Origin: Porticoccus sp.
Lineage (GTDB): Bacteria > Pseudomonadota > Gammaproteobacteria > Pseudomonadales > Porticoccaceae
Assembly (NCBI RefSeq): GCF_002707685.1
Contig: NZ_PANQ01000002.1
DNA: 64,000 nucleotides
Strand: one strand, 5' to 3'
Below are positions 3,615 through 62,523 of this stretch, piece by piece (position 1 is the first letter of the stretch; each line of letters opens with the position of its first letter). A program made the position numbers and the translations under genes. The notes under the pieces were generated by a model. It was not told where the DNA came from, ran no database searches, and saw only the letters and a list, made by a program, of their open reading frames with translations.

Positions 3615-3767
3615 CTCCCTTCAAAGCCTATTATTGCCTGATTGGCCGTCCAACAACATCCCCAATTTAGGCCGTGGCAATAGGCGACAAACCTTCCGTG
3701 TCATATAACCAAAATGGCTTTTCGACTTGACTCTCCGGAGTCACTTCAATATATTACGCGGCCTCAC

Positions 3768-3844
3768 GCACTCGTAGCTCAGCTGGATAGAGTACTCGGC
3801 TACGAACCGAGCGGTCGGAGGTTCGAATCCTCCCGAGTGCGCCA
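3768..3844 (+). tRNA. tRNA-Arg(ACG)
   Basis: 77-nt cloverleaf GCACTCG...CGAGTGCGCCA. Anticodon arm CTCGG-CTACGAA-CCGAG, T-loop GTTCGAA, encoded CCA. Confidence 0.98.
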
Positions 3845-3848
3845 TTTC

Positions 3849-3883
3849 AATAAAAAACCCGGCCTTGTGCCGGGTTTTTTATT
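3849..3883. terminator. Bidirectional intrinsic terminator after tRNA-Arg
   Basis: AATAAAAAACCCGGC-CTTGT-GCCGGGTTTTTTATT perfect inverted repeat. Confidence 0.9.
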
Positions 3884-3911
3884 GAATCGATTTTGAGAGT
3901 TCGAACCGATT

Positions 3912-4016
3912 GGAGGTTCGACAACTTCCGTGAGGAAGTTGGACCCAGCAACCGCAGGTTGCGCAGCCCCGCAGGGGGCAAAGCGGCCATAAGCCGTTTT
4001 GAGTCAATCCTCCCGA
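3912..4016 (+). repeat. Duplicated tRNA-Arg T-arm interrupted by an 85-bp four-hairpin cassette
   Basis: GGAGGTTCGA (3912-3921) and ATCCTCCCGA (4007-4016) are identical to tRNA nt 3817-3836 and flank four tandem hairpins. Confidence 0.75.
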
Positions 4017-4224
4017 AGTTCAAGCCGAGCACATAGATGTGAGACAGCCCGCGGCCCAGAGGCGGTGACCCAAGTAATCCTCCTTGACGAGTTATAAGCG
4101 GCTACATACGGTCACAACTCTGCAAACTGGTCGTATTGCCGGCCCGCCATCAGAGCTGACGGTCGTTCAACGGCGTGCAAAATGGCGATTTGTAGATACT
4201 CTCCCGAAGCGTCCGCCATAAAGC

Positions 4225-4251
4225 AAAACCTCGCCTTTTCAGGCGGGTTTT
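4225..4251. terminator. Intrinsic terminator downstream of the DAACS symporter
   Basis: AAAACCTCGCC-TTTTCA-GGCGGGTTTT hairpin with A/T flanks. Confidence 0.7.
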
Positions 4252-4294
4252 CTGTCATTGAGGATATTTGAAGGGGCTCAGTCTATACCGATGA

Positions 4295-5740
4295 CTATCC
4301 CTCTCGCAGGTTGTTTGTGTTGGTGAGTACGTCCTCACCAGTTTGTTCGCGAACGATTTCCTGCTGCTGCTCCTTGAGCCGCTCGGCATGGTGGCTGAGA
4401 TTGCTGCCCACCCATTGATCCATCAGTTTTGCGGTCACCAGGTCGCCACTGACATTGATGGCTGTGCGACACATATCGAGTATCCGGTCAACCCCCATGA
4501 TGAGTGCGATGCCCGCAGCCGGTATGCCGACACTGTCGAGAACCATGGCGAGTATGACGATACCCACCCCCGGGGTTGCCGGTGAACCGATTGATGCACC
4601 AACCGCAGTGATCACGATCAATACCATGCCGCCAAGTCCGATATCGATGCCGAATACCTGCGCGATAAACATGGCTGCCACACCCTGATAGAGTGCCGTG
4701 CCGTTCATGTTGATGGTGGCGCCCAGCGGGATCACGAACTGCGATATGGAGGGTCTGACGCCGAGTTTTTCCTCAGCCACCTTGATGGATAGCGGCATTA
4801 CGGCTGCGGAGCTGGAGGTGGAAAAGGCCAGCAACAGCACCTCCTTGATGTCGTTGAGGAAGGTCAGCGGGTGTCGCCTTGCCACGATCAGAATAATCAA
4901 CAAATACAAACCCAGTAACACCAATAAGCCCAGCAGGACTGTGATGACATAGACGGCCATGCCCAGCAGGGCATCGATGCCGAGCTTGGCGGTCAGCTGT
5001 AGTATTAACCCGAACACGGCGATCGGTGCCAACAGCATGGCCCAGCGGACGACGGTCATGCAGACTTCCTGGAGGGAGCCCATCAAATCAAGCAGTGGCT
5101 TGGCCTGCAGTGGTGTCATCATCACCAGTGCCACACCCATGATCATGGCGAAAATGACCACCTCCAGCATATTGCTTTCCACCATCGCGGAGAGCGGATT
5201 AGAGGGCAGTAGCGTGACGATTTTTTGCGGCAGCTCATCGAGTACGGGGTTGCCGGACGCTTCTGCCGTCGGGATTGTCTCGATCAGCGAAGCGAGCTGC
5301 AGTGCCTGCTGGTCGACGTATTGCCCCGGCTTGATAAGGTTGGCGATGGTGATGCCAATCACGATGGCGATGGCTGTGGTAAAGATAAAATACAGCACCA
5401 CCCTGAAACCGGTTTTCTTGAGCTGATCCAGATCCTCTGTGGCCGCCAGCCCCCGAATGATGGAGGCAAAAACCAGCGGAATGACAATCATCTGAATCAG
5501 GGCGAGAAAGAGTTTGCCCGGCAGTGCCAGCCAGTCGCTGATGGCGGCAGCATCGGCCGGTGAGACCCAGCCCAGGCTGGGCCCCATCAGAATGCCGACG
5601 ACAATGCCGAGAAACATGCCAACCAGCACCTGCAGCCACAGTTTGCCCCTGATCAACCCCTGCAGGGACGCGCTTAGATATTTAAGTGAGCGGGGCTGAA
5701 GAGCCTTGACGGTAGAACTGAGAAGGTTGTGATTTGGCAT
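4295..5740 (-). CDS. Dicarboxylate/amino acid:cation symporter (DAACS, GltP-like)
   Basis: AFSTSSSAAVMP, PLGATINMNGTALY and GVDRILDMCRTAINVSGD motifs. Confidence 0.95.
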   Translation of the reverse strand: MPNHNLLSSTVKALQPRSLKYLSASLQGLIRGKLWLQVLVGMFLGIVVGILMGPSLGWVSPADAAAISDWLALPGKLFLALIQMIVIPLVFASIIRGLAATEDLDQLKKTGFRVVLYFIFTTAIAIVIGITIANLIKPGQYVDQQALQLASLIETIPTAEASGNPVLDELPQKIVTLLPSNPLSAMVESNMLEVVIFAMIMGVALVMMTPLQAKPLLDLMGSLQEVCMTVVRWAMLLAPIAVFGLILQLTAKLGIDALLGMAVYVITVLLGLLVLLGLYLLIILIVARRHPLTFLNDIKEVLLLAFSTSSSAAVMPLSIKVAEEKLGVRPSISQFVIPLGATINMNGTALYQGVAAMFIAQVFGIDIGLGGMVLIVITAVGASIGSPATPGVGIVILAMVLDSVGIPAAGIALIMGVDRILDMCRTAINVSGDLVTAKLMDQWVGSNLSHHAERLKEQQQEIVREQTGEDVLTNTNNLREG

Positions 5741-46863: not shown

Positions 46864-46939
46864 GTCCCGTTCGTCTAGAGGCCTAGGACACCGCCCTTTC
46901 ACGGCGGTAACAGGGGTTCGACTCCCCTACGGGACGCCA
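46864..46939 (+). tRNA. tRNA-Glu(TTC)
   Basis: GTCCCGT...ACGGGACGCCA with anticodon arm CCGCC-CTTTCAC-GGCGG. Confidence 0.98.
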
Positions 46940-46962
46940 CTTTTATCCTGATGGGATAAAAT

Positions 46963-47038
46963 GCGGGAATAGCTCAGTTGGTAGAGCGCAACCTTGCCAA
47001 GGTTGAGGTCGCCGGTTCGAACCCGGTTTCCCGCTCCA
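46963..47038 (+). tRNA. tRNA-Gly(GCC), ICE integration site
   Basis: GCGGGAA...TTCCCGCTCCA with anticodon arm CAACC-TTGCCAA-GGTTG. Confidence 0.98.
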
Positions 47039-47080
47039 ATTTATGATCTACAAAGTTCTACTGAAGTCTGTAAGTCATTG

Positions 47081-47107
47081 AAAAAAGGAGCGAAAGCTCC
47101 TTTTTTT
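47081..47107. terminator. Intrinsic terminator downstream of tRNA-Gly
   Basis: AAAAAAGGAGC-GAAA-GCTCCTTTTTTT. Confidence 0.9.
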
Positions 47108-47147
47108 GTTCCAGCAAGATCCACTGAAATCTGTCGGCAGCCAAGAC

Positions 47148-47169
47148 TTTTAAGTCCTTTTTTAAGTCC
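47148..47169 (+). repeat. Tandem direct repeat TTTTAAGTCC x2 (candidate integrase arm-binding sites)
   Basis: Copies at 47148-47157 and 47160-47169, between the tRNA and the integrase. Confidence 0.5.
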
Positions 47170-47267
47170 ATTTCAATACGGGCTCGGCGGGTTCCGGATT
47201 AACGCTGGAGGAGTGAGACCGATATGACAAGCATCTAGTCCTGACTCTAAAGTTCAGGAGCTGGAGC

Positions 47268-49082
47268 ATGGCACTATCAGACACCGCCGTTCGGAATGCC
47301 AAGGTCACTGGCAAGGCCTACACACTCCCCGATATCGATGGACTTTCTCTTGCGGTTTCCCCGATTGGAGGCAAGTCTTGGCACTTCCGCTATTATTGGG
47401 TCGGTAAACAAAGACGGATGTCGCTGGGTCCCTATCCGGAGGTGAGTTTGCGTGAGGCACGCCGACTCCGTGATGATGCCCGCGCCCTCTTGGTCAAGGG
47501 CACCAATCCCCACATCCATCGAAAACAGAAGCGCCGGGCGGTCCGTCTGGCGGACGAAAACACTTTCCAGGCAGTGTTCGAAAAATGGGTCGAACACCGC
47601 AAGCTGGTGTTGAAGGAGGGGCGTCAAAGTACACTGTCCCAGATTCAGCGTATCTTCAACAAGGATGTGTTACCGATACTCGGCAAACGTCCCATCTATG
47701 AAATCCAGCGACCAGACCTCTTGGAAGTCGTCGCCAGGATTGAGAAGCGTGGGGCGCTCAGTATTGCGGAAAAAGTGCGCGTCTGGTTTCGGCAGATGTT
47801 TCGCTATGCCCTGATTATTGTCCCTGATCTGCAGCAGAATCCCGCGTTTGATTTGGATGTGGTTGCATTGCCGCAACCACCGGCTCGTCATAATCCATTT
47901 CTGCGCATGGCAGAGCTTCCCGCAATGCTGCAAATGTTGCGCAACTATCAAGGGCGATTACAGACTCAGTTGGGGCTGCGTCTCTTGTTGTTGACTGGGG
48001 TGCGTACTGGCGAGCTGCGTTTGGCAACGCCTGATCAATTTGACTTGGAGCGAGGACTCTGGATCATTCCACCCACTGTCGTTAAGCAACTGCAGCTAAA
48101 GCTGCGCAATGAAAACCGGCGTTCCGACACCATCCCACCTTATATCGTTCCTTTGTCTGTGCAGGCCCTTGAGATAATTCGTTTCATGCTCGAGCGAATG
48201 AAGCCTGCGCAGCACTATCTGTTTACCCACGCGAGCAATCTGAAAAAACGGATCAGCGAAAATACCCTAAATGGTGCGCTCAAGCGTATGGGGTATAAAG
48301 ATCAACTGACCGGACACGGTATTCGCGCGACCCTATCCACAGCGCTCAATGAAATTGGCTACCCCAAGCCGTGGATTGAGGCGCAGTTATCCCACTCTGA
48401 TCCTAATAAGGTGAGCGCCGCCTATAATCATGCCGAATACATTGAGCAACGGCGCCACATGATGCAAGACTGGGCTGACCGCCTGGACCTGTTTGAGCAG
48501 AATCTGGTTGATGCTGCCAGCCGAGTCCTGACTGTTCACCTGGAGGGTGTTCCAGAGCTTGATGAGACGGAGATCGAGGCTAAGGAAAAAGTTGAACCGG
48601 TGATATCCGCTCCCACGCTAACAGTGATGCTGCAAGAGACCGAAAATGCGCCGGTGATCCCCGAGTCTGGACAACGTCTGTCCGCAGTGAAGGGGCCACG
48701 CCCTGTGATGTCCGACTCTCAGCGCCGGCGTCAGGAGATGCTCAATATCTTCAACTCATCACAGGTTGTAACCGCAGCGGACTACGCAAAAATGGTGGGC
48801 AAATCCCGACGCTGGATCAGTTATGAAATCCAAAGGCGCAGGGTGTTGGCGCTCAAAATTGGCAACCTTGGACATCGTATTCCCGGCTGGCACTTTGAGC
48901 CATTGAAGCACAAGCTGATTCAGGCGGTACTCAAGCAGTGTGGAGAGGTGGACCCATGGCAGATTCACGGTGTGCTATCTGAACCCCGCGAGGATCTAGA
49001 CGGGCGTCCTCCTATCGAAGCGGTGACGGAGCATGGATTTCATGAAGTGGCGCTCGAGGTATGTCTGGCTCTAAAAGGATAG
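47268..49082 (+). CDS. P4-like tyrosine integrase (IntB13 type) with a long C-terminal extension
   Basis: Arm-binding N-terminus, RTGELR, HGIRAT, QLSH and AYNHAEY. 604 aa. Confidence 0.95.
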   Translation: MALSDTAVRNAKVTGKAYTLPDIDGLSLAVSPIGGKSWHFRYYWVGKQRRMSLGPYPEVSLREARRLRDDARALLVKGTNPHIHRKQKRRAVRLADENTFQAVFEKWVEHRKLVLKEGRQSTLSQIQRIFNKDVLPILGKRPIYEIQRPDLLEVVARIEKRGALSIAEKVRVWFRQMFRYALIIVPDLQQNPAFDLDVVALPQPPARHNPFLRMAELPAMLQMLRNYQGRLQTQLGLRLLLLTGVRTGELRLATPDQFDLERGLWIIPPTVVKQLQLKLRNENRRSDTIPPYIVPLSVQALEIIRFMLERMKPAQHYLFTHASNLKKRISENTLNGALKRMGYKDQLTGHGIRATLSTALNEIGYPKPWIEAQLSHSDPNKVSAAYNHAEYIEQRRHMMQDWADRLDLFEQNLVDAASRVLTVHLEGVPELDETEIEAKEKVEPVISAPTLTVMLQETENAPVIPESGQRLSAVKGPRPVMSDSQRRRQEMLNIFNSSQVVTAADYAKMVGKSRRWISYEIQRRRVLALKIGNLGHRIPGWHFEPLKHKLIQAVLKQCGEVDPWQIHGVLSEPREDLDGRPPIEAVTEHGFHEVALEVCLALKG

Positions 49083-49135
49083 ACCCCGTGACTCTTGGAC
49101 GTGACAACGAGCCACGCTGTGACTTGTCGGATGCG

Positions 49136-49804
49136 TTAGCTGTCAAAGCCTAGTCGCCCATGGGTGACCCACGGTATTGATAGGGCTCTTTCAATAAAAC
49201 GTCCATCTCTACCTCCAGGGTCCAGATTGGAGCGATGGATCAGATAGGTGGTTGTTGTTGGAGACGGGTTGGCTAAAGGGCGCCCGACGATTCCCCACGA
49301 TTGATATCGTGCCACAATTGGCGCGGGTGCGATGGTAACGCCATAATTTGCCGAAACCAGGGCCATCATGACATCGACGGTTAGGGCGGTCTGTAAGGCA
49401 TTGGGCTGCTGGTTGCCCAGCGATCTGAGAATTGTATCCAGCTCCAGAAACGAGGCTTTTCTGAAAACGGCGTCCCAATGGATGATAGTGAAGTCCATTA
49501 AATGGGCTGGCGTGACAATGGATTCTCGCCCCAATGAAGAGTGGATTGATGCGGCGACTATCCAAGCCTCCCTCCATAGTGGAACGGCTTTCCATCGATC
49601 ATTGACAATCGCGGATCGGGATATCCCGATATCGTATTGTCCGCGGCTAAATTTCTGGGATATTGATGATGTGCTCGACTCGTGAACCTGGATTTTGACG
49701 TTTGGCTCTTCGGCTCTTTGTCGCGCGAGCAGAGTTGCCAATTGAGGATGGGTTAGCGTGTCGCATAGAACGATGTGCAGGCTGCTTGAATTCTCAGTGT
49801 CCAT
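49136..49804 (-). CDS. LysR substrate-binding domain protein lacking the HTH
   Basis: Aligns by eye with the SBD of the LysR at 50206-51120. There is no room upstream for an HTH. Confidence 0.8.
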   Translation of the reverse strand: MDTENSSSLHIVLCDTLTHPQLATLLARQRAEEPNVKIQVHESSTSSISQKFSRGQYDIGISRSAIVNDRWKAVPLWREAWIVAASIHSSLGRESIVTPAHLMDFTIIHWDAVFRKASFLELDTILRSLGNQQPNALQTALTVDVMMALVSANYGVTIAPAPIVARYQSWGIVGRPLANPSPTTTTYLIHRSNLDPGGRDGRFIERALSIPWVTHGRLGFDS

Positions 49805-49836
49805 ATCTGCCGAACCACAGTTGCAAAATTTTCCGC

Positions 49837-49851
49837 TTATCTTATCAATAA
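49837..49851. promoter_or_regulatory. Candidate LysR recognition box
   Basis: TTAT-N7-ATAA inverted repeat (T-N11-A) in the divergent promoter, next to the palindrome GTTAAATTTAAC. Confidence 0.45.
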
Positions 49852-49918
49852 TGAGTTAAATTTAACGTGGTTTAAGCAAAGTCCATAATGGATGCTTTTG
49901 CAGATGCAGAAGCGTTCA

Positions 49919-50203
49919 ATGCAGCGGGGGCGCCCCGTAGGATCCACGACTTATAATGCCGAGCCTGCTCTGGCGTTTGGTGCGGCTGTGCGGGAAGCCA
50001 GGGTCGATTTGGGCATAGCCCAGGAAAAGCTGGCTCACCTTGCAGGGATTGAGCGTTCTCATCTGGGGAAGATCGAGCGCGGCGAACATATGCCGACACT
50101 CGCTTTGATTTTAAAAATCGCAAATGCATTGGGCTGTCGTGCAGGAGTGCTTATAGAGGCTACGGAAGCGCAACTGGACAACAGGGTCAAATCCAGTCCA
50201 TAG
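49919..50203 (+). CDS. XRE-family HTH regulator
   Basis: FGAAVREAR..IAQEKLAHLAGIERSHLGKIERGEHMPTL. Confidence 0.92.
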   Translation: MQRGRPVGSTTYNAEPALAFGAAVREARVDLGIAQEKLAHLAGIERSHLGKIERGEHMPTLALILKIANALGCRAGVLIEATEAQLDNRVKSSP

Positions 50204-50205
50204 CG

Positions 50206-51120
50206 TTAGTCTTCTTCCATAGTGAGTTCCCCGGGAGATCGATCACTGCGACTGACCCGTTGTAGAAACCGTTCAAGTTGTTCAGACGGTTCGGTATTTG
50301 GGCGCAGTAGATAAGTGGTCAGTGTGGCCATCTCCATATCGAGTGGTCGGGGGACCACATCCGGATGTCGGTACACCTTGAGCTGGGACTCCGTGGCAAA
50401 GCCCAGTCCATAACCGGCGGCCACCAGAGTCAGCATCAAGTCGAGTGACGTGGCATGCTCGGCGACGATGGGCTCTGTCTTCACACTCCTGAGTATCTGG
50501 TCGATTTGCCGACTACACCCCTCGCAGACGTCAGGGTGACAGAGCACCAACGGATAACGCAGCAGGGCGTCCAGTGGCACATGGGTGAAAGACAGCAATG
50601 GATGTCGGGAGGGAATAACAGCGACGAGAGTATCGGCCCAAACAGCATCAACCAAAATACTTTTTTCGACGTTGTCTGTGTGGGCAAAACCGACGTCAAA
50701 AATATCGCTTTGCAGTCCCTTGATTTGTTGGGTCAGAGATCGCTCGAACAAGCGAATTTCCACATCGGGTTCCTCTTCCCTGCAAAGGGCGAGCAGCGAT
50801 GCCAAGCGCGGCTGGACGATGCCATCGGAAAGCACAATTCGCAGAGCGCCACGATAGCCGGTGGCGGCAGCTTTGACGTTATTGCGGGCCTGGTCCAAGA
50901 CGGTAAAGATCCGCTGAACATCTTCTAGGAAAACTTGGCCAGCCCATGTCAATTGAGTTCCACGGCGACTCCGCTGGAACAACAGGACATTGAGTTCTTC
51001 CTCGAGCTCCTTGATGGTGCGGGAGAGGGGAGATTGTTCAATATGCAAACGCGCTGCAGCCCGGGCGAAGTGAAGCTCTTCCGCCAATGCAAGAAAATAA
51101 CGCAGATGGCGAAGTTCCAT
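50206..51120 (-). CDS. LysR-family transcriptional regulator
   Basis: MELRHLRYFLALAEELHFARAAARLHIEQSPLSRTIKELE. Confidence 0.96.
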   Translation of the reverse strand: MELRHLRYFLALAEELHFARAAARLHIEQSPLSRTIKELEEELNVLLFQRSRRGTQLTWAGQVFLEDVQRIFTVLDQARNNVKAAATGYRGALRIVLSDGIVQPRLASLLALCREEEPDVEIRLFERSLTQQIKGLQSDIFDVGFAHTDNVEKSILVDAVWADTLVAVIPSRHPLLSFTHVPLDALLRYPLVLCHPDVCEGCSRQIDQILRSVKTEPIVAEHATSLDLMLTLVAAGYGLGFATESQLKVYRHPDVVPRPLDMEMATLTTYLLRPNTEPSEQLERFLQRVSRSDRSPGELTMEED

Positions 51121-51198
51121 GTTTTCACCCTGATATGCCTGTTTGGTTGTATTGTTTTTGCTCCTTGCGCAGAGCCGGTGTATGTCCTCATGTCGTCA

Positions 51199-51228
51199 GG
51201 CAATCAAAAAAGCGAATTCTTGATTGCC
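51199..51228. terminator. Hairpin downstream of the original tonB stop (possible terminator)
   Basis: GGCAATCAA...TTGATTGCC 9-bp stem. Confidence 0.45.
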
Positions 51229-51244
51229 GCGGTAGGGGTCAACG

Positions 51245-53478
51245 CTCGGGTAGGAACGGCCCATTACTGGGCCGCGCCCCCCTAAGAACCGTACGTGCGA
51301 GTTTCCCCGCATACGGCTCAAGCCTCCGCAAAGCCCTGTTCCACGAGAGCCGCCAGTTCACTTCGTCGGGTGGAGTTGTTGGCCTGTGCGGACCGATCCT
51401 GACGATCCGTGGGCAGCCTTAGCCTGTCGGCAAAGTAACCGTCCCATGCCGGATCAAACGGATTAGCTTCCGCCCTGATTTTACAATGACGGCGGATGGG
51501 AACATCGGTGGCTTTCACCAAGCGCACGGTCGTGCGGTTCCCCTTGTCGTCCGTCACTTCCGCACGGAACACCCAATCTCGCGTACCTTCGAGGACGAAG
51601 TAACGTGCTTTCACCCAGCTACGCGATTTGTTCGAGTGCCTGCGACAGGCCCAGCGCCAGAGTTGCTGCCAGATGAGGTGGTCGACCTTTCGAAAGGTCA
51701 TCTTCGCCACCTGGTTGCGGTGATAATTCGCCCATCCCCGGATGACCGGGTTGAGACGTGCTATCACATCCTCCTGCTTTGCGCCGACAGCGCTCCTGAT
51801 GATTGCCCGAACCTTGCACAAGAAGGCCTGCACATTTTTCCTTGCAGGTCTGATAAGAAGCTTCCCATCATATTTGCGCACGTTCCAGCCGAGGAAGTCG
51901 AAGCCTTCCTCAATATGCGCGATACGCGTCTTCTCATCGGATAGGGAAAGGCCCCTGCGCGACAAGAAGTCCTCGACCATCACCTTCGCTTCTTCAAGAA
52001 GGTCCTTCGACCTACCGGTGATGACGAAGTCGTCGGCATAGCGGATCAGGTGGACCTTGGTACGACGACGGTTCGGTCGCCGGGGACCAAAACGGTCCTG
52101 CAGCATCCTCTCCATCCCGTCCAGGGTCATGTTCGCAAGCGTCGGTGAGATAATACCGCCCTGCGGCGTACCCGCTTCCGTCACGAACAGCTCGCCATCC
52201 TGCATAAAGCCGGATTCCAGCCATTTCCGAAGCACCACCTTGTCCGTGGGGATGTTGGCGATGAGCCAGTCATGGCTGATGTTGTCGAAGCAACCGGCGA
52301 TGTCTGCGTCGAGAACCCAGTCCGCCGCATTCCGCAGACGCAGCGCCTTGTAGCACTGTTCGACGGCATCGCGGCTCGCTCGCTTCGGCCGAAAGCCGTA
52401 GGAGTTGGGGTCCGCTGTGGACTCCGCGACAGGGTCGAGTGCTAGCAGGTGGAGTGCCTGCATGGCCCGATCCTTCATCGTCGGAATGCCCAGCGGGCGC
52501 AGTTTTCCGTTCGCTTTCGGGATATATACCCGTCTCAGCGGCTGCGGGCGGTAGCCCCGCCGCGTAAGCGACAACATTCCTCTGGCACGTCTGCCCGGCG
52601 TGTCCCAGATTGCTCCATCGACACCGGGAGTACTCTTTCCTCGATTTTCCGTAACCCGCTTAACGGCAAGGGCCTTGCCACTTTGCGAGTGGGTCAGCAG
52701 CCATTGCAACGCTTTCACCTTGCCCCAGCGGCCTTCCCGAACTGCCTTCGCGATACGCACTTGCAGCCTTCGCACGGTTCGATCCACCCCGGCCCAATCA
52801 ATCCGGTGCCAGTCGGCCTCACCGCCGGAGGCCGCACCAGTCATGTTCATGACCATCATTTGCCTGTCCTCCTTTTCGAGGGTTCTACAAATTCTCTCGC
52901 GACGAGAGACCTGTCGGAAGTCTGCTCCCTTTCGGGCGAGGTAATATTGGCAGACCGCAACCTCTATCCACGTCGTTACAACGCGGCATTCGCTTTCTCC
53001 GACCTCGCATACCCGCACCCCCATCAACTTTCCTTGCGGTCCGCCTGCCCGTTGCCGGGCGGGGATACGGGCTTACCGTGTTTCACCTATGTAACGAAGT
53101 GGGTTAGACCCTGCCTCTTCGCCGGCGGTCATGATGTCCGTGTGCCCCCACTGAACAGAGAGGCAGCCGACCGCGCACCTTTTGGTTCAAGCCTGTCAGC
53201 ATCTTTGGCTTGTCATTCTAAACGACGTTTATCAGCAGTTCACATATGTTGGTCATACCACCCAGCCTGGCGCCCTATCCACATCGATGCTCATAGATAA
53301 TGCTAATACTTCACAGTATCGGCACGATCCGAAGACCCGGCTACGTTGTCCCGGCAGCTTCACACCGGACCGTTACCAGTCCCGCATGTGCCGGTAGGCT
53401 ACTGATGACGGAACATCAGGTTTCTCTCAAGGATTACCTCCTTTTGAAACAATTACATAGGCGACGTCAACGTCGCAC
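51245..53478 (-). mobile_element. Group II intron (IIB-like RNA), about 2234 nt, inserted at the penultimate codon boundary of tonB
   Basis: 5' GTGCG at 53478. Domain V GAGCCGTATGCGGGGAAACTCGCACGTACGGTTC at 51319-51286. Domain VI with bulged A (CCT-A-CCC). RT ORF in domain IV. Confidence 0.93.
51318..52859 (-). CDS. ltrA: Group II intron reverse transcriptase/maturase without an HNH endonuclease domain (513 aa)
   Basis: AGGAGG RBS, RPLGIPTMKDRAMQ, GTPQGGIISP, YADD and GWANYH (domain X). The ORF ends shortly after NPFDPAW, with its stop overlapping domain V. Confidence 0.95.
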   Translation of the reverse strand: MMVMNMTGAASGGEADWHRIDWAGVDRTVRRLQVRIAKAVREGRWGKVKALQWLLTHSQSGKALAVKRVTENRGKSTPGVDGAIWDTPGRRARGMLSLTRRGYRPQPLRRVYIPKANGKLRPLGIPTMKDRAMQALHLLALDPVAESTADPNSYGFRPKRASRDAVEQCYKALRLRNAADWVLDADIAGCFDNISHDWLIANIPTDKVVLRKWLESGFMQDGELFVTEAGTPQGGIISPTLANMTLDGMERMLQDRFGPRRPNRRRTKVHLIRYADDFVITGRSKDLLEEAKVMVEDFLSRRGLSLSDEKTRIAHIEEGFDFLGWNVRKYDGKLLIRPARKNVQAFLCKVRAIIRSAVGAKQEDVIARLNPVIRGWANYHRNQVAKMTFRKVDHLIWQQLWRWACRRHSNKSRSWVKARYFVLEGTRDWVFRAEVTDDKGNRTTVRLVKATDVPIRRHCKIRAEANPFDPAWDGYFADRLRLPTDRQDRSAQANNSTRRSELAALVEQGFAEA

Positions 53479-54354
53479 ATTCAAGAAGAATTCAACCGGC
53501 ACCACGAATTCGAGCGCTTCACCTTGCATCTCCACAGGAGGTTTGGGCAAGGGTTGGGCACGGTCAATCAGCGCCAAGGTTTCTTCGTCCAGCAGAGGAT
53601 ATCCCGCGCTTTGTTCGATACTTTTTGTCAGCACATTGCCTTCCCGGTCCATGGTGAAGCGCAAGTAGGCAACCCCCTCCTGCCGGTATCGGCGTGCTTG
53701 GGTGGGGTAGCTCTTGGCCTCATTGAGCTTCAACATCAGGCTGTTTTGCCAGGTGGGGATGGCGTTCGAGTTGACAGCGGGTGCGGAGACACCTTGGTTT
53801 GGCGCAGCGGCTTCTACGTCATCCTGGGGTGCATCTGGCGGTGCACTGGCTGCGCTGGCCGGTTTATCTTCGGGTGGAGTGATCTCCGGTTCTTCTTGCT
53901 GAAGCTCATTTGACGTTTGTTTTTCGGGCTTTGGTTCGGATTTCGGTTTCACCGCCACTTCCGGTTTAACCGCAGGTGGTGCCGGAGGAATTTCCGGTTC
54001 GGGTTCCTGTTGTGGCTCGGGCTCGGGGGGAGGTGCGACTTCCGCCTGCTCAGGACCGGGTGGCATATCCGGTTGTGAGGCTGGCGCCACTGGCGCGGGA
54101 GCCAGTTCGACCACCATGGCGGCGGGCGGTGGTGCATTGGTGCCGGGGTTTTGCTCCGGTATCAGCCACCAGGTCAGGGGTGCGCCGTAAGCGACCACAA
54201 CCATCAGTAGGGACGTCAGCCAGCGGAAAGTGTTGTTTTCTCTCGGGACGGGCTCGTCGTCCAGTTTGGGCGCGATGTCCGCAACGTCCGGGGAAAGTCT
54301 GCCGCTTGCCTTGACCAGCGTCAGCGTGGGTTTGCGGGCCAGGTTGTCTTTCAT
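53467..54354 (-). CDS. tonB: Energy transducer TonB (C-terminus rewritten by the intron)
   Basis: TM anchor, Pro/Glu/Lys-rich linker, and C-terminal domain YPTQARR..EG..SAGYPLLDEE..AQPLP. Confidence 0.9.
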   Translation of the reverse strand: MKDNLARKPTLTLVKASGRLSPDVADIAPKLDDEPVPRENNTFRWLTSLLMVVVAYGAPLTWWLIPEQNPGTNAPPPAAMVVELAPAPVAPASQPDMPPGPEQAEVAPPPEPEPQQEPEPEIPPAPPAVKPEVAVKPKSEPKPEKQTSNELQQEEPEITPPEDKPASAASAPPDAPQDDVEAAAPNQGVSAPAVNSNAIPTWQNSLMLKLNEAKSYPTQARRYRQEGVAYLRFTMDREGNVLTKSIEQSAGYPLLDEETLALIDRAQPLPKPPVEMQGEALEFVVPVEFFLNVRR

Positions 54355-54800
54355 GAACCTGGTCTCTCTATGGCTGTGCTTCCCGAGCCCCCGGCTTCCA
54401 GGGCCACTAGTGCAACTTTCAGATAGCCTGCTTCCCGCAGCCGGTTCATGGTTTGCATCAGAGTATCGTAGTCCACGGTTTTGTCCGCGCGCAGAAAGAT
54501 ACGCTGTTCCACATTATCGTCCGAGGAGGCCTTCAAGGCATTGGGCAGGGTTTCCAGCGTGACAGCATCGTTGCCCAAGGCCAGGCTGTGATCCGCCTTG
54601 ATGGTCAGGTACAGGGGTTTGTCGGATTTTGGTTGGGATTCTGCAGTGGAAGCGGGTAAATCCACCTTCACATCCACAGTTGCAAGGGGCGCGGCCACCA
54701 TAAAGATAATTAGCAGTACCAGCATGACATCGATAAAGGGCGTGACATTGATCTCGTGGTTTTCCACCAGTTCGTCGTCGTGTTGGATCCTGGCGGCCAT
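54351..54800 (-). CDS. exbD: ExbD
   Basis: INVTPFIDVMLVLLIIFMVAAPL and LRADKTVDY. Confidence 0.95.
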   Translation of the reverse strand: MAARIQHDDELVENHEINVTPFIDVMLVLLIIFMVAAPLATVDVKVDLPASTAESQPKSDKPLYLTIKADHSLALGNDAVTLETLPNALKASSDDNVEQRIFLRADKTVDYDTLMQTMNRLREAGYLKVALVALEAGGSGSTAIERPGS

Positions 54801-54803
54801 GGC

Positions 54804-55454
54804 TTAGTCCTCTCCAACGGCCTTGAGGCCGGTAATTGTGTGACGGCTAAGGTCGCGGGATACCAGCCTCAGAATGGCTACGGAAGTGTCACCCACCAAT
54901 GCCTTGTAGGCGGCGATCTGACGGGCAAAGTGGTTGTAAATCACCACGGCGGGGATAGCTGCCACCAGACCCAGGGCGGTGGCCAATAGGGCTTCGGCAA
55001 TCCCGGGGGCTACTACCGCCAGGTTGGTGGTTTGTGCTTTTGAGATGCCGATAAAACTGTTCATGATGCCCCATACCGTGCCGAACAGACCGACAAAGGG
55101 TGCGGTGGCGCCGATGGTAGCGAGGATGCTGGTGCCCTTGGTGATCCTCCTGCCGCTGGCAGCTTCCAACCGTTCCAGGCTGGAAGCAACCCGTTCCTTG
55201 ACGCCTTCGGTATCCGCCAAGGTGTTGGCAGACAAGCGCAGCTCCTTGGCGGCGGCGCGGGTCAGTTCTGTGCTGCCCTGGCCTTCATCGAGCTTTTCGT
55301 GGGCGGCTTTCAGGCTGTCCGCATCAGATAGGACCGAGAGGGATTGTCGTTGCCGCTTAACCAGGATCCGTAACTCCCGGGTCTTGGCTACCAGCACTGT
55401 CCAGGTGGCAATGGAGGCCAGCGCCAGGCCGATCATCACCGCTTTCACCACCCA
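54804..55454 (-). pseudogene. exbB: 5'-truncated exbB
   Basis: WVVKAVMIGL..ATAPFVGLFGTVWGIMNSF..APGIAEALLAT. Upstream DNA belongs to a different gene on the opposite strand. Confidence 0.85.
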
Positions 55455-55773
55455 GGCCTTGTCTCAGGGGCAGCGGAAGCGGCTTGCCTTGGTGGCAGCC
55501 TGCCTGGAGGACCGCCCGTTTCTGGTGTTCGACGAATGGGCGGCTGACCAGGATCCGGTATTCAAAGAGGTGTTTTACCGGGAGTTGTTACCCGAGCTGA
55601 AAACGCAGGGCAAGGCGGTGCTGGTGATCTCCCACGACGACCGCTACTTCCATCTTGGTGACCGGTTGTTGAAGCTGGAAGATGGACAACTATCCAGCAT
55701 TGAGCAGACCGAAACCGCAGTGGAGCAACCGACGGTAAATCTTCGTCCAGCAGTGCCGGTGGGGTCGTCCTAG
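55444..55773 (+). pseudogene. 3' fragment of a cyclic-peptide/siderophore export ABC transporter (PvdE/SyrD/YojI-like)
   Basis: LSQGQRKRLAL, FDEWAADQDPVF and ISHDDRYF. Walker A and the TM domain are absent. Confidence 0.88.
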
Positions 55774-57623
55774 GCATGCGTCCCGTTCTGGTCTGCTTTG
55801 TCATTTCCCTGAAGTTCGATCAGGGAAAGGTACGGATTATTTGGTGGAGTCTCATTCATTAATACGCCAGGATCCGCCATTAGATACCCGTGTACTTTCC
55901 GCGATTTCCTGGGGCCGGTGACGTTGAACGTCCAGATGTTCAGGCCATCGGCTTGTTTGCGGTGCAGTTGCAGGCGTTCGAAGCGTTTTTGAATCCACTG
56001 CCAGTCCTTGACTTGATCCTGTTTGGCGAGGGGAGAGATTTCAGGATGCTCCTGCGCGTAGCGTTGGAATATTCCCGGGCTGATCAGGCAAAAGGTATCC
56101 TCAACGGTATGTACCAGGGCCTTGGCGTCATTGATGATCAGTTTTCGGCTCAGCATGCTGGTTCTCAGCCACTCTGTGAAATGCTCGCCTGACGGTTCCT
56201 GTGGCGGAGGGTGGGTGATAGGTGAGTCGGTTACTGTTGGTTTTTGGGAGGAAGGTGTTGTTACTCCTGAACCGGTGTTTTCAGCTTCGGCTGCGGTCCC
56301 TTTTCCGGCGCCACCTGTTGGCTCACCCCGCTTGGGGCTGGATAGCAGATCCATTAATGCGTCGATATCGTCGGTCTGAGCCCTTTCGGCAGGGGCATCA
56401 CTTTTCTTGGGCTGGGCGGGCGCTTGTCGTGGCGTTGTCTCTGGTGACACTTCGGCATGCGTGTCGTTCTGAGCGTCCTGTTCAATCTGTACGGTGCCGC
56501 TAAACGGTGCCGGTCTGTCGCCCGCTTCCCAGATGAGTGAGGGTGACAATTTGAGGAAGGTGAAGGTGTTGACCCAGCCATTGTCGCCGGTGACGGTGGC
56601 CCGCCAAATGGCTTTGCCCTCGCCATTGGGTTGAATCATACCGTGGTCCTGCAGCACGTCGAACAACACTGTATTCTTTTCCGGAATCCCTTCCAGTCCC
56701 TGAGACAACAGGTGTGCCCGCAGCTTGTCGGAGATGGTTTTGCTCACCAGCCACAGGGTTTCCTGGGTCAGCCAGCCGTCCGAGGCCTGGGGCTGGTTGA
56801 GTTTGAAGGCCTCCCTGACCAGATAGCGCAGCCCCTCCAAAAGTTTGCGTTGCAATGCCTGTTTGGGCGCGGCCAGTGCTTTGGCGGGGTTGCCGCCGAG
56901 GGCCTGGGCAACCGAGGCCTGATCAGCTTTGGTGACCAGTTCACCCAGTATCCCGGCGTGTTCGTATTTACCCGCCAGCATATAGAGCAGCGCGGACCAC
57001 AGTTCAGGGTAGGCACACAGCCAGTCGAGAATAGCGCGGCTGAGCAGTTGGGTGTACAGCAGTCCGGAGGCGGCGCTGTGCAGGCGGTATTCGCGGTTCG
57101 GTTGGTAACGGAAGCGGTATGGGGCGGACAAGGGGCCGTGCCAGGGATGCCACACTGTGCCGTCCCGGTACTCGACATGTAGATCCACAGCGACCTTGCC
57201 GATATCGTGCAGCAGTGCCGCGTAGGCGAGACCGGCTGTCCAGGCATCGGCCTGGGCGGCTTGTGTTTCCGGCGGCGCGCCCGGCGGCAGGAGGTGGGAT
57301 TGCCTCAGCTTCAAGGCGTAGATGACGATTTCCAGGCCGTGATCCAGCATCCCGCCGGGGTAGGCGTGGTGATGGCTTTCCGAGGCTGGAAAGGCCTGTA
57401 CCCATTCGGCGTATCGCTCCAGTGGGGCCCGGTAGAGCGTGGCGTATTGCTGTCTGGAGACGGCGGTGAGCTGCCAGATGCGCTCCAGCAGTTTTTGGCG
57501 ATGGGGCTCTCCCAGCAGGGAGGCGGCGCTCCGCGGAGGGAACAGGCCTGTGACTTCCTCTGTGCCCGGAGTGGATGAGGGTGGTGGCCTTTTGCCAATT
57601 TTGGATCGAAGCAGTGTAAACAT
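55770..57623 (-). CDS. traI: MobH-family (TraI_2, PFGI-1 class) ICE relaxase
   Basis: PASESHHHAYPGG.LDH.LE, LLHDIGK, ADQASV, and a C-terminal DUF1528-like region. Confidence 0.95.
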   Translation of the reverse strand: MFTLLRSKIGKRPPPSSTPGTEEVTGLFPPRSAASLLGEPHRQKLLERIWQLTAVSRQQYATLYRAPLERYAEWVQAFPASESHHHAYPGGMLDHGLEIVIYALKLRQSHLLPPGAPPETQAAQADAWTAGLAYAALLHDIGKVAVDLHVEYRDGTVWHPWHGPLSAPYRFRYQPNREYRLHSAASGLLYTQLLSRAILDWLCAYPELWSALLYMLAGKYEHAGILGELVTKADQASVAQALGGNPAKALAAPKQALQRKLLEGLRYLVREAFKLNQPQASDGWLTQETLWLVSKTISDKLRAHLLSQGLEGIPEKNTVLFDVLQDHGMIQPNGEGKAIWRATVTGDNGWVNTFTFLKLSPSLIWEAGDRPAPFSGTVQIEQDAQNDTHAEVSPETTPRQAPAQPKKSDAPAERAQTDDIDALMDLLSSPKRGEPTGGAGKGTAAEAENTGSGVTTPSSQKPTVTDSPITHPPPQEPSGEHFTEWLRTSMLSRKLIINDAKALVHTVEDTFCLISPGIFQRYAQEHPEISPLAKQDQVKDWQWIQKRFERLQLHRKQADGLNIWTFNVTGPRKSRKVHGYLMADPGVLMNETPPNNPYLSLIELQGNDKADQNGTHA

Positions 57624-57779
57624 GACGCTATCAGATACGGGGCCGGATAAAGGTGACATCCGGGTATAAGGCATCGGGCGCGTGGCGGCTATGGAGAATG
57701 GGAAATGGCGTTGGTGCGGATTACCTCCGTTTTCGGTCCATCCCAAAAGCGACAGGGTTTCGCATCGTTGTGGCATAGC

Positions 57780-57960
57780 GATTTTGGGTATTCTTGAACG
57801 CCAGGAGAATATTTCTCTGTTGGGCGAGGATGATTGGCGGGAGAGCCTTTTCGCCTTTTACAGGTAGGGCCTTTCCCCTTGATCACCCTTCCGTTGTGCC
57901 AGCCTTTTCAGCCCTTAATGCCGTTTGGGGTTGCGACGGTACGCATGTGCTGAGGATGTC
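57780..57960. other. Candidate oriT / traI upstream region
   Basis: Non-coding region upstream of traI with repeated GCCTTT(T) motifs. An ICEclc oriT is known to lie upstream of traI. Confidence 0.4.
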
Positions 57961-57983
57961 TTTGGGAGGGTATTGAATTTCTG

Positions 57984-58016
57984 TTAGTCAATGACTAATA
58001 TGCAGTCATTGACTAA
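57984..58016. promoter_or_regulatory. Operator of the toxin-antitoxin operon
   Basis: TTAGTCAATGACT-N7-AGTCATTGACTAA perfect 13-bp inverted repeat just before the GGAGGAG RBS. Confidence 0.75.
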
Positions 58017-58028
58017 TGGAGGAGAGCC

Positions 58029-58277
58029 ATGGCTACAATGACTATTCGTAATATTGAAGACGAGCTCAAGACTCGATTGCGTGTGCAAGCCGCTTCACAC
58101 GGACGGTCGATGGAAGATGAGGCTCGGGACATTCTTCGGGCGGCATTGTCGTCTGAACCGGTACGGGGCGCTTCCCTGGTGAAGGCGATCCGGGAGCGCA
58201 TTGCACCTACGGAAGGCATTGAGCTGGAGCTGCCCGCCCGGGAGGCGATCCGCACGCCACCGGAGTTGGATGCGTGA
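58029..58277 (+). CDS. FitA-like ribbon-helix-helix antitoxin
   Basis: MATMTIRNIEDELKTRLRVQAASHGRSMEDEAR. Confidence 0.9.
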   Translation: MATMTIRNIEDELKTRLRVQAASHGRSMEDEARDILRAALSSEPVRGASLVKAIRERIAPTEGIELELPAREAIRTPPELDA

Positions 58278-58693
58278 TTATCCTGGACACAAACGTGTTG
58301 TCCGAAACATTGCGTCCAAGTCCGGACGCGCGCGCCCTGGCGTGGTTGGAGGCGCAACCTCGCGCGGCGTTGTTTACCACCACAATCACCCAGGCGGAGG
58401 TGCTATATGGTGTTCGCGTGCTACCGAATGGCCAGCGTAAAGCTGCGTTGTTGGATGCTGTTCAGGCTATTTTTGTCTCCGACATGGCCGGGCAGGTGCT
58501 GGGGTTTGACAGTGATGCTGCGGCAGCCTATGCGGAAATTGCCGCCTTCCGTAAAACGGCGGGTAAGCCGATCAGCCAGTTTGACGCCATGATTGCCGCG
58601 GTGGCCAAATCCCGTGGCGCCGGTCTGGCGACACGAAACGTCAAGGATTTCGCCGATTGCGGTATCCAAGTGGTAGATCCTTGGCAGTATTGA
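58274..58693 (+). CDS. vapC: VapC/FitB PIN-domain toxin
   Basis: IILDTNVLSE, FDAMIAAVA and LATRNVKDF. GTGA overlap with the antitoxin. Confidence 0.93.
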   Translation: MIILDTNVLSETLRPSPDARALAWLEAQPRAALFTTTITQAEVLYGVRVLPNGQRKAALLDAVQAIFVSDMAGQVLGFDSDAAAAYAEIAAFRKTAGKPISQFDAMIAAVAKSRGAGLATRNVKDFADCGIQVVDPWQY

Positions 58694-58843
58694 GGATGCC
58701 CTGCCGTGACTTGCGTCAAAATCCTGTGGCATGAACTGAAACAGTATGCGGCGGGTCATAGACGAAGAGCGTTTCACTCAGCGAGTTGATGGAATGATGG
58801 CGTGGTTATGAGTTGACGCAGAACTGCAAAGCGAGGCAGAACG

Positions 58844-59224
58844 ATGGCAACTAATGCACATACCGAAAGGTGGGCTCATCGGGCTGGCTGTAAGGTTGGC
58901 CGTGCGTGGCGTGGAGTTGTGCGTCAGGATCGGCGAGCCATTGAGTGGTTTGTGAAACACGGTTGGCCAACTGGTCTCGCCAAGGCGATGCTCTGGATTA
59001 CGAAGTTGGCTGTTCTCGGTGTGTTGCTGTACACCGCGTTCTGGCTGACGTTACTGTTTGTTCTTGCGCTTCTGGTTACTTGCGGGATTGCCAATAGCGA
59101 CCAAGGGGACGAGCAAGTGAATGCAAATGACGAATGGAGGTTTGGTGAATCTGGCTATGGCCTCTATTCATCTGGAGGACAGCGCATTGATCCTCATGAT
59201 CCAAATGACCCGTACGATGAATGA
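58844..59224 (+). CDS. DUF3742 family ICE membrane protein
   Basis: GRAWRG..RQDRR..LW..KLAVLGVLLY.AFW, acidic tail with G.SGYGLY. Expected ICE position. Confidence 0.8.
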   Translation: MATNAHTERWAHRAGCKVGRAWRGVVRQDRRAIEWFVKHGWPTGLAKAMLWITKLAVLGVLLYTAFWLTLLFVLALLVTCGIANSDQGDEQVNANDEWRFGESGYGLYSSGGQRIDPHDPNDPYDE

Positions 59225-59237
59225 AGGGAAGCATTGG

Positions 59238-60755
59238 CTACTTCAGTTTGCCTGATACTTTGTTTATGCCGGAAGCTGTACTGTCCCTGGCATCTTTTGA
59301 GCCCCCTGCCAAATTTTGTGCTATTCCACCGGCACGTATGCCCACCCACCCCAAGGCCGTGACCCAAAACGTGGGTAACACAATAAACATCGCTGCCATC
59401 ACAAAGTTCAGCAACATATCCCCGAAGGCATTGTTCAACCCCATCAGCAGGTTGAAATTGGTGTGGGGTCGGTCTGCCCCCAGCCCCCAGCCGTAGAGGG
59501 CATCGAGTATGGTCGAGTCGAGCCAGCGTGCGAGCTGGAACCAGAAATCCACGAAGAACAGGGCGAACTGCACGCAACTGACGATGACCACGGATTTCAG
59601 GTCATAGGTGCCCACTACCAGTATCAGCGGAATGCAGATGGCCATGGCCATTTTCAGGAACGACAGCACCATGGGCAGAGCCTGGCGCACGATATCCATG
59701 GCGGGGAAAAAGCCCAGCGAGCCGACGGTCAATCCCACGTCGGCGGCACCGCGGGCCACGATATTGGGGATCGTCATCTCGATCTGGCCGCCGTAGTCGG
59801 TGTAGACGGCGCCCTGGTTCATCTTTTGTTGACGCGGGGAGGCGATGGCGCGTATCACCGAGTCATTGATCTGGTCTTGGGTCAGGAACCCCGCCCATTC
59901 ACCGATGCGATCCAGTAGATCGGGATCCACCTGCTCCAGCAACTGCGTTCGCAGCCCCTGGGGACTGTCGGCCCACCACTGTCGGCAGGTAGGGTAGCCG
60001 CCGCCATTGACCACTTCCGGAAATCCGGCGTCCCGGACTGTGTCATAGGGCCAGTCCGGTCGGGGGAGGGTTGTGTGGTAGGTGTCGTAGAAGCCAGGCG
60101 TTTCGAGGAAATAGCCGGAGCCGATCCAGTTGATATCGTTCATTTCATCCTCACCGAGAGTTGGCCGGTTCATGAACAGCTTTGCCCGTGAAGGGCCATA
60201 GCAATCGTGGGTGAAGTCGGCCACCTCCTGGGCCAGCACCGGGTCGTCGATGCGGGTGCTGTCGATGTCCATGCGGATCTGGCGCAGGTCGGTCCCGCAG
60301 GGGATCGCCGCCACCGCCGCGCCGGTGATGGCCTTCGAGAGACTGTGCATGAAGAACCACCAGACCGGCACTTGGGCACTCTGGTCGTTAAGGGTGGTAA
60401 AGCTGGTGGCCCAGTCCGTCTCGTCGGGCAGGGGCACATCGACCTGGCACTGGATAGAGCGGGAGCGGTCGAATGCCAGTGTACTCAGGTCCAGTGGGAT
60501 AAACGGAATACCCGCAAACAGAATCACCACAATGGCGACCCATACCCGGTTTTCGATACGCAGTGAGGACAGCACGCCCTTGTTGCCTTCGTCGGCTCCC
60601 TCGGCGCGGGCGCGCAGCCACTCCTGAATGATGATGGCAAGAAACGGCAAGGCGAACACCCCACTGGCCACCAGGACATGCCAGATGCCGTTACTGACGA
60701 TCCAGCCCACCAGGGTCAGATAGTATTCCAGATAGTCCGAGGTATAGAGCGTCAC
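59238..60755 (-). CDS. Conjugal transfer TraG N-terminal domain protein
   Basis: YLEYYLTLVGW, VPVWWFFMH and YPTCRQWW. Confidence 0.9.
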   Translation of the reverse strand: MTLYTSDYLEYYLTLVGWIVSNGIWHVLVASGVFALPFLAIIIQEWLRARAEGADEGNKGVLSSLRIENRVWVAIVVILFAGIPFIPLDLSTLAFDRSRSIQCQVDVPLPDETDWATSFTTLNDQSAQVPVWWFFMHSLSKAITGAAVAAIPCGTDLRQIRMDIDSTRIDDPVLAQEVADFTHDCYGPSRAKLFMNRPTLGEDEMNDINWIGSGYFLETPGFYDTYHTTLPRPDWPYDTVRDAGFPEVVNGGGYPTCRQWWADSPQGLRTQLLEQVDPDLLDRIGEWAGFLTQDQINDSVIRAIASPRQQKMNQGAVYTDYGGQIEMTIPNIVARGAADVGLTVGSLGFFPAMDIVRQALPMVLSFLKMAMAICIPLILVVGTYDLKSVVIVSCVQFALFFVDFWFQLARWLDSTILDALYGWGLGADRPHTNFNLLMGLNNAFGDMLLNFVMAAMFIVLPTFWVTALGWVGIRAGGIAQNLAGGSKDARDSTASGINKVSGKLK

Positions 60756-60771
60756 CGGGCAGGCTCCCCTT

Positions 60772-62513: not shown

Positions 62514-62523
62514 ATCTGTCGCC

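Follow-up and report, generated by a model that had tools for sequence, protein, structure and literature searches.

Organization of the locus downstream of tRNA-Arg(ACG)

The window, i.e., the whole stretch of 64,000 nucleotides from Porticoccus sp. analyzed here, contains a tRNA-Arg(ACG) gene among housekeeping genes, with gap and pgi upstream and genes for an SDF symporter, TamB, and TamA downstream. The tRNA gene is followed by an array of two to three decayed repeat units (positions 3887-4252), the first of which is the subject of this study. This unit starts 43 nt 3' of the tRNA gene, on the same strand and beyond its terminator T1. Only one promoter-like site was found between positions 3600 and 4400, namely that of tRNA-Arg (3727..3755), and none lies between T1 and the unit. 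Since T1 has both an A-run and a T-run, it looks bidirectional. Its hairpin is also present 3' of the empty tRNA-Arg locus of a close relative (G020). All features are listed in Table 1.

Table 1. Features of the tRNA-Arg(ACG) locus and of the integrative conjugative element (ICE) elsewhere in the window
Feature	Position	Strand	Remarks
tRNA-Arg promoter	3727..3755	+	sigma-70-like, TTGACT-17-TATATT
tRNA-Arg(ACG)	3768..3844	+	source of the T-arm and 3' end copied downstream
Intrinsic terminator T1	3846..3886	+	extended palindrome with 18-bp stem, A-run and T-run
Unit leader ('ext')	3897..3921	+	GAGAGTTCGAACC-GATT-GGAGGTTCGA, degenerate T-arm-like repeat
Copy of tRNA positions 49-58	3912..3921	+	GGAGGTTCGA, T-stem 5' strand GGAGG plus TTCGA
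Four-hairpin core	3922..4005	+	hairpins H1-H4, then GAGTC at 4001-4005; 129.8 bits to model R1
Hairpin H1	3922-3941		CAACTTCC-GTGA-GGAAGTTG
Hairpin H2	3948-3962		GCAACC-GCA-GGTTGC
Hairpin H3	3966-3979		GCCCC-GCAG-GGGGC
Hairpin H4	3980-4000		AAAGCGGC-CATAA-GCCGTTTT
Copy of tRNA positions 58/59-68	4006..4016	+	AATCCTCCCGA, A(A)T plus T-stem 3' strand plus CGA
Degraded canonical RtT-type ('a-type') unit	4017..4083	+	GTTCAAGCCGAG...AAGTAATCCTCC
Spacer	4084..4200	+	about 115 nt, conserved with G021 and G016; fits neither unit type
Decayed distal tRNA-Arg 3'-end copy	4201..4218	+	CTCCCGAAGCGTCCGCCA, orthologous to intact CCTCCCGAGTGCGCCA in G021
Terminator T2	4230..4251	+	end of the array
ICE	46864-63500
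ICE: tRNA-Gly(GCC)	46963-47038
ICE: P4-type integrase	47268-49082
ICE: two LysR-family ORFs
ICE: group II intron	51244-51321, 53271-53420		Rfam matches
ICE: RT/maturase ORF of the intron	51318-53027
ICE: TraI_2 relaxase/helicase	55770-57776
ICE: TraG_N	59238-60755

The unit is built on a copy of the T-arm of the adjacent tRNA. Its two flanks, GGAGGTTCGA and AATCCTCCCGA, match positions 49-68 of tRNA-Arg(ACG), and the 84-nt core splits this copy at T-loop position 58/59. The original prediction had described exactly such T-arm halves around four tandem hairpins, and its sequences and coordinates for hairpins and flanks were confirmed; only GGAGGTTCGA shifts, to 3912-3921 from the implied 3913-3922. 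Its notion of the insert as a discrete structured cassette held as well: RNAfold recovered the four hairpins in the unit (-55.9 kcal/mol, z = -4.2, with none of 200 shuffles as stable), and they covary in 32 copies (see below). The core can be closed by an invariant GAC (3920-3922) pairing with GTC (4003-4005). The additional GTTCGAA upstream, at 3899-3905, is part of a fifth hairpin, H0, in which TCGAACC (3901-3907) pairs with GGTTCGA (3915-3921). The leader as a whole is the counterpart of the TGAGAACC...GGTTCGA leader found in other copies and in the RtT RNA of E. coli.

The tail of the window unit is limited to the 11 nt of AATCCTCCCGA; the remaining acceptor 3' strand and the CCA are absent. 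The a-type remnant that follows agrees in 76 of 95 bases with an intact unit of a relative (G011), has internal deletions, and has decayed too far for a score with the Rfam model of RtT, RF00391. The spacer behind it may be another decayed unit. Hairpins of the T2 type are also found 3' of the tails in three relatives (G021, G015, and G016). The core itself shares 95% identity with its G021 counterpart, and more distant copies are separated from it by compensatory changes.

A family of units that copy the end of their tRNA

The Porticoccus genome from which the window was taken carries four copies: one at tRNA-Arg(ACG), one at tRNA-Arg(CCG) with the flanks AGAGGTTCGA ... AACCCTCTCGGGTGCGCCA, and two in tandem at tRNA-Lys(UUU) with the flanks GGTTCGA ... 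AATCCAGCACGACCCACCA. In the tRNA-Lys pair (G000 C2:97739-98050; L010 838-1151), the first unit is a canonical RtT (a-type) and the second belongs to the type found in the window, which we call b-type. Each of the two has one terminator, and the first trailer is almost identical to the distal one. A scan of 185,579 species genomes for the exact pattern returned 28 matches in 24 DNA stretches, all of them within Porticoccaceae, Microbulbifer, or Zhongshania. Cultured carriers include Porticoccus litoralis DSM 25064, Microbulbifer marinus, and Zhongshania marina. Because the combination of T-arm and hairpins recurs, it is far beyond chance.

An alignment of 32 copies (A2) had 87.8% of its cells paired. 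Covariation amounted to 0.249, compared with 0.108 after shuffling (none of 500 shuffles reached 0.249) and at most 0.072 in slid controls, with many double changes in H1, H2, and H4. These compensatory changes support the predicted hairpins. A model built from A2, and thus from b-type copies only (R1), detected copies in 104/301 genomes (49/134 genera) of an order sample, in 63/400 genomes (58/321 genera) of a class sample, and in 28/401 genomes (19/212 genera) of a phylum sample. Seventeen of the 28 carriers in the phylum sample come from two non-gammaproteobacterial families. Homologues and covariation, both proposed as checks in the original prediction, were therefore found. Tandem arrays in relatives comprise 2-5 units with a period of about 161-198 bp, mostly 170-185 bp.

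We then compared the flanks of 59 distinct tRNA-adjoining units, located just 3' of a tRNA gene on the same strand, with the tRNA upstream of them. These units serve 16 tRNA species, i.e., Arg (ACG, CCG, TCT, and TCG), Ser (GGA, GCT, CGA, and TGA), Lys, Met, Leu, Asp, Gln, Pro, Val, and Phe. A perfect 16/16 copy of positions 61-76 of the upstream tRNA was present in 25/59 units, compared with 0.07% in cross-tRNA controls, and a match of at least 13/16 was present in 32/59 units, compared with 5.9%. Thus, whether the flanks match the neighboring tRNA, a further check that had been suggested, can be answered in the affirmative. Unlike the window copy, the sister b-type copies with a 16/16 match keep the full tail. 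5' of GGTTCGA, the units carry the same tRNA end once more, inverted and decayed (mean match 9.3 vs. 8.3 of 16, p = 9e-9).

An intact b-type unit is composed, in this order, of a leader, tRNA positions ~49-58 (GGTTCGA), the four-hairpin core, tRNA positions ~59-76, and its own terminator. The UUCGA pentamer of the T-loop is preserved, and intact units finish in the acceptor strand of the tRNA plus CCA. The Rfam RtT consensus includes pairing between leader and tail; in b-type copies, this pairing is weak.

Some units contain further repeats. Three loci with units 3' of tRNA-Arg (L130 in G021, L129 in G015, and L054) carry a tandem 9-mer, GCCTCCTCA, in up to ~7 copies between the unit leader (…GAGAACCTCCTCA) and GGTTCGAG; these runs look like slippage on a motif derived from the T-stem. 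In other units (L096 unit 5, L118, L078, and L121; G320 and G191), a mini-hairpin of ~35 nt (…ATACCCAA…GTGGGGCATGCTAAC…) is placed between H1 and H2, and is a cassette within the cassette.

Relation to RtT RNA

RtT was described in E. coli between about 1978 and 1991 and has since been a curiosity of one operon without a settled function. Its prototype is the set of 178-bp repeats of the E. coli tyrT-tyrV operon, with the sRNA RttR (b4425) and the overlapping tpr ORF. A tyrT/tyrV unit reads GGGGAAGGA-TGAGAA-GCTTCGaccaa-GGTTCGAC-(four hairpins)-GAGTAATCC-TTCCCCCACCACCA. RefSeq labels these sequences 'RtT sRNA', with 0-10 copies per genome in 5,426 complete E. coli genomes. The annotated RttR starts 7 nt 3' of tyrV, and its 3' end coincides with the CCA of the pseudo-tail, in line with a tRNA-like 3' maturation.

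The units of tyrTV scored 133-138 bits with RF00391. R1, which contains neither E. coli nor a-type sequences, matched 4/4 E. coli units with 23-28 bits (E about 3e-8 to 7e-7 in a 2.1-kb search). Of all sequences in the genome of the window, only the a-type unit behind tRNA-Lys, which is shorter than the b-type, passed RF00391, with 60.1 bits (gathering score 45). The intact b-type copies of this genome were also missed by RF00391, and there was no match within positions 3840-4300 of the window even at E<=10. Since RF00391 is blind to the window unit, the latter represents a divergent subfamily. When the window was scanned with Rfam 15 at gathering scores, and the region of the unit at E<=10, only sub-threshold terminator noise overlapped this region. 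Indeed, the curated model covers a minority of the units: RF00391 passes its cut-off in only 19 of the 301 genomes of the order sample, far fewer than the carriers found with R1. G011 has units of both types interleaved at its orthologous tRNA-Arg locus, and the window contains a degraded equivalent of this arrangement.

Taken together, we propose that the window feature is one unit of an RtT-type tRNA-trailer repeat and belongs to a divergent b-type subfamily, and we assign a probability of roughly 0.7 to this assignment. Its proposed membership in RtT is based on the shared architecture, the co-occurrence, and model R1, and not on RF00391. The original prediction had left the feature without a named family; it would now be placed as a divergent member of RtT RNA (RF00391; E. 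coli rttR).

A sub-threshold match of AbsR25 (RF02607, an Acinetobacter sRNA; 35 bits, E = 2.8e-4, gathering score 47) was observed at the tRNA-Lys locus (L010 914-996), where it spans the tail and terminator of an RtT unit. AbsR25, too, may be a tRNA trailer of the RtT kind.

Cores outside the T-loop

The core is not confined to T-arm copies. Upstream of an intact tRNA-Ser(GCT) gene, it lies in a 5' copy of that tRNA split in the D-loop (...GGCCGA/core/TGGCTGAAGG; L090 6190-6300, G110), and upstream of an intact tRNA-Arg(CCG) gene, in a copy split in the anticodon loop (...CTTCCGA/core; L122 about 440-570). At a further locus (L127), it is found in a complete pseudo-tRNA-Val, again upstream of an intact tRNA gene. 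Cores are also located in non-tRNA hairpins with flanking stems (L123-L126), e.g., in a 15-bp inverted repeat (L124); these hairpins belong to a second repeat family in G320. In one a-type unit of G011, the T-arm-like hairpin of the leader contains a b-type core, and the window holds a decayed version of this fusion. With copies in D-loops, anticodon loops, and other hairpins as well, the cores behave like cassettes and do not represent the scar of an integrase.

One copy may be a clue to the origin of the units. At L090 14405-14520 (G110), tRNA-Arg positions 59-76 are followed by a terminator, the exact reverse complement of 59-76, and then the module, forming a perfect palindrome. The inverted copy is a perfect 18-mer here, while the same segment is decayed elsewhere, and the whole looks like a freshly made unit.

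These observations can be accommodated if the core of ~85 nt is a non-autonomous mobile element that targets loops, with the RNA as a by-product. Such an element would be compatible with the RtT identity of the unit. It would be placed after CGA in each case (TTCGA/A in the T-loop, GCCGA/G in the D-loop, and TCCGA/A in the anticodon loop), and the same event would produce the partial duplication, which leaves one tRNA gene intact, and the inverted copy of the tRNA end. We regard this as a possible but still doubtful explanation. The cores in D-loops, anticodon loops, the pseudo-tRNA-Val, non-tRNA hairpins, and the a-type leader argue for it, as do the palindrome of the young G110 copy, a sign of recent placement, and the patchy spread in the order, class, and phylum samples. 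Copy numbers range from 0 to 34 per genome, and in G320 related core variants are shared among Met, Arg, and Ser loci, with core halves recombined.

On the other hand, no enzyme was found. Y1 HUH transposases (PF01797; IS200/IS605/RAYT) do not follow copy number: they are absent from G299 with 13 copies and from G291 and G247 with at least 10 each, and present in 9/13 zero-copy genomes tested. The window unit, used as a blastn query (E<=1e-3), had no match on plasmids or phages. Moreover, the cores within Porticoccus group according to tRNA locus, a pattern suggestive of vertical descent; unequal crossing-over explains identical tandem units; and no clean filled-versus-empty pair was found to fix the boundaries of the insert. 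Integron attC-like sites, serine-recombinase dinucleotide crossover, IS91 targeting of GTTC, rolling-hairpin concatemers, and target-primed reverse transcription were also considered, and none of them fits all junctions.

In its widest form, the proposal would hold that RtT-type cores, including the classical RtT of E. coli, are unrecognized and very widespread non-coding mobile cassettes. They would home to tRNA genes, at T-, D-, and anticodon hairpin loops that contain CGA, and leave behind one intact gene together with a partial copy split by the cassette and an inverted copy of the tRNA end. We put this forward tentatively, as a conjecture with somewhat less than even chances.

Putative transcription and maturation, and turnover of the units

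The units are gained, lost, and shuffled between close relatives: the tRNA-Arg(ACG) locus is empty in many Porticoccus species, and elsewhere shows differing orders of units and terminators in near-identical backgrounds. Beyond the identity and anatomy of the unit, E. coli and comparative data suggest how such repeats may be transcribed and turned over. Transcripts of the window unit, which has no promoter, would arise only by read-through from tRNA-Arg, as its trailer. A terminator separates the unit from the tRNA gene, which is not the case for the E. coli units, and transcription of the window copy is therefore doubtful. As the annotated RttR of E. coli indicates, tRNA-like trimming would give intact units a 3' end at the CCA of their tail. 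Recombination between the repeated tRNA ends probably lengthens and shortens the arrays. In the window copy, the acceptor/CCA part of the tail appears to have been lost, and the unit to have been fused to the degraded canonical RtT unit. This copy is most likely an ageing relic with a core that is still well preserved.

The strand on which the core folds was also assessed. Consensus pairs included 52 G-U compared with 38 A-C, which falls short of significance. Between the strands, MFE differed by -0.5 kcal/mol (p = 0.15), and MFE-based G-U counts pointed in the opposite direction. Since neither wobble pairs nor folding energy pick out a strand, an RNA function of the core would be a supposition. 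A Tpr-like peptide encoded by the unit is unlikely, as the frames are short and the compensatory substitutions fit structure and not coding.

An RNA function is the essence of another reading, according to which the unit is a small RNA that benefits the host. As a mimic of the tRNA 3' end or of a minihelix, it would regulate, or act as a decoy in, tRNA processing, the action of tRNA-targeting nucleases, or the stringent response. Compensatory change keeps the core structure throughout the class, the UUCGA pentamer is intact, and intact units close with the acceptor strand and CCA, all of which would suit such a role. For E. coli, PMC3318445 and bioRxiv 10.1101/2024.07.17.603846 state that rttR is encoded by one repeat unit and report, citing Bosl & Kersten 1991, an RNA product and a link to stress or the stringent response; there, RttR is assumed to influence both the processing of the tyrT transcript and the stringent response, its mode of action being given as unknown. 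However, the presence of the units is patchy, their copy number is very variable, and their tails decay freely. The window unit in addition is promoterless, lies behind a terminator, and lacks the CCA tail. We therefore consider a host-beneficial RNA unlikely. The original prediction had guessed at either a small non-autonomous element at tRNA genes or a structured RNA that mimics tRNA ends; each survives in part.

Integrative elements and the array

The original prediction had also entertained an island-end scar. In that case, the unit would be an attR-side remnant of an island, or a derivative of ~180 bp moved in trans by a tyrosine integrase crossing over in the T-loop. tRNA 3' ends are classical attB sites, arrays of tRNA 3' fragments resemble attB accretion, and at two loci (L047 and L060) the tRNA variant kept in the distal tail is older than that in the proximal tail, in agreement with integration. 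Against this, the tRNA copy is not a continuous direct repeat but is broken at 58/59 by 84 nt, the array has housekeeping genes on both sides and no integrase next to it, and copies in D-loops, anticodon loops, and non-tRNA sites are incompatible with a single integrase site. The 11 tyrosine recombinases (PF00589) of the genome are located elsewhere, beside other tRNAs.

Real islands were seen only to displace the arrays. Those at L090 and L091 have their own contiguous tRNA fragment, located between the tRNA and the displaced array. In G110, tRNA-Arg(ACG) is separated by an integrase island from its displaced, contiguous 3' half, which is followed by the old terminator and then the module array, and at tRNA-Met of G041 a serine-recombinase/MobA element displaces the array likewise. 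The real ICE in the window, which is inserted at tRNA-Gly(GCC) (Table 1), comes without such a module. Gene context and the loci L090 and L091 thus largely refute the scar, which we consider very improbable.

Implications and comparison with known systems

If the proposed assignment is right, the RtT-type design, a structured core at T-loop position 58/59 of a duplicated tRNA end, serves many tRNA species, and its b-type subfamily is common in marine gammaproteobacteria, where the standard RNA-family model misses it. The locus offers a concrete route to a broader RF00391 and to the annotation of hundreds of 'orphan' tRNA-trailer repeats. The units also account for puzzling tRNA 3' fragments, which island-finding programs may take for att sites. 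Whether RtT is a mobile cassette or a functional mimic of tRNA ends becomes a testable question. A literature search for T-loop-inserted elements returned nothing relevant.

Integrative elements at tRNA genes (attL/attR, with T-loop sublocation) and CIMEs, which derive from them and lack genes, resemble the units in their repeated tRNA 3' fragments, in turnover between strains, and in stacking behind one intact tRNA. The units differ in that they are not associated with integrases, that the tRNA fragment is split by a cassette within the T-loop, that copies are also found in D-loops, anticodon loops, and non-tRNA hairpins, and that they measure only 125-185 bp.

Like the cores, IS200/IS605 ends, the non-autonomous PATEs derived from this family, and REP/RAYT hairpins are small, gene-less, and rich in hairpins, with end hairpins that are alike (H1 ~ H4), and they are placed beside a short conserved motif with no obvious classical target-site duplication. 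In the core, however, a hairpin abuts the left junction, and so there is no space for a guide segment. IS200/IS605 elements also lack the flanking partial gene duplication and the inverted copy seen with the cassettes. An assignment to PATEs or REPINs of the IS200/IS605 type was rejected, as Y1 (PF01797) does not co-occur with the cassettes.

tRNA-like domains with insertions (the TLD of tmRNA; T-loop motifs, positions 59-60) have an acceptor-type 3' strand with CCA, an intact UUCGA pentamer, and the insertion on the 59/60 side, as in the units. Unlike these domains, b-type copies show no convincing pairing of a 5' acceptor strand. The Rfam 15 models of tmRNA, Y-RNA-like RNAs, ribozymes, and others had no match in the window region.

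The closest counterpart is RtT of E. coli. The b-type differs from it in a long first hairpin of 8 bp, an A/U-based fourth hairpin, and GAGTCAATCC, in the intrinsic terminators that usually lie between tRNA and unit and between units, and in serving at least 16 tRNA species instead of tRNA-Tyr; the window copy differs further in its truncated tail. Yet in both, the units lie directly 3' of a tRNA gene in the same orientation and form tandem arrays of ~175-185 bp with strain-variable copy number. They have in common the TGAGAA(C/G)C leader, GGTTCGA, four hairpins, and GAGT(C)AATCC in the same order, and both RtT and intact b-type units finish with the last ~19 nt of the tRNA's own 3' end, including CCA.
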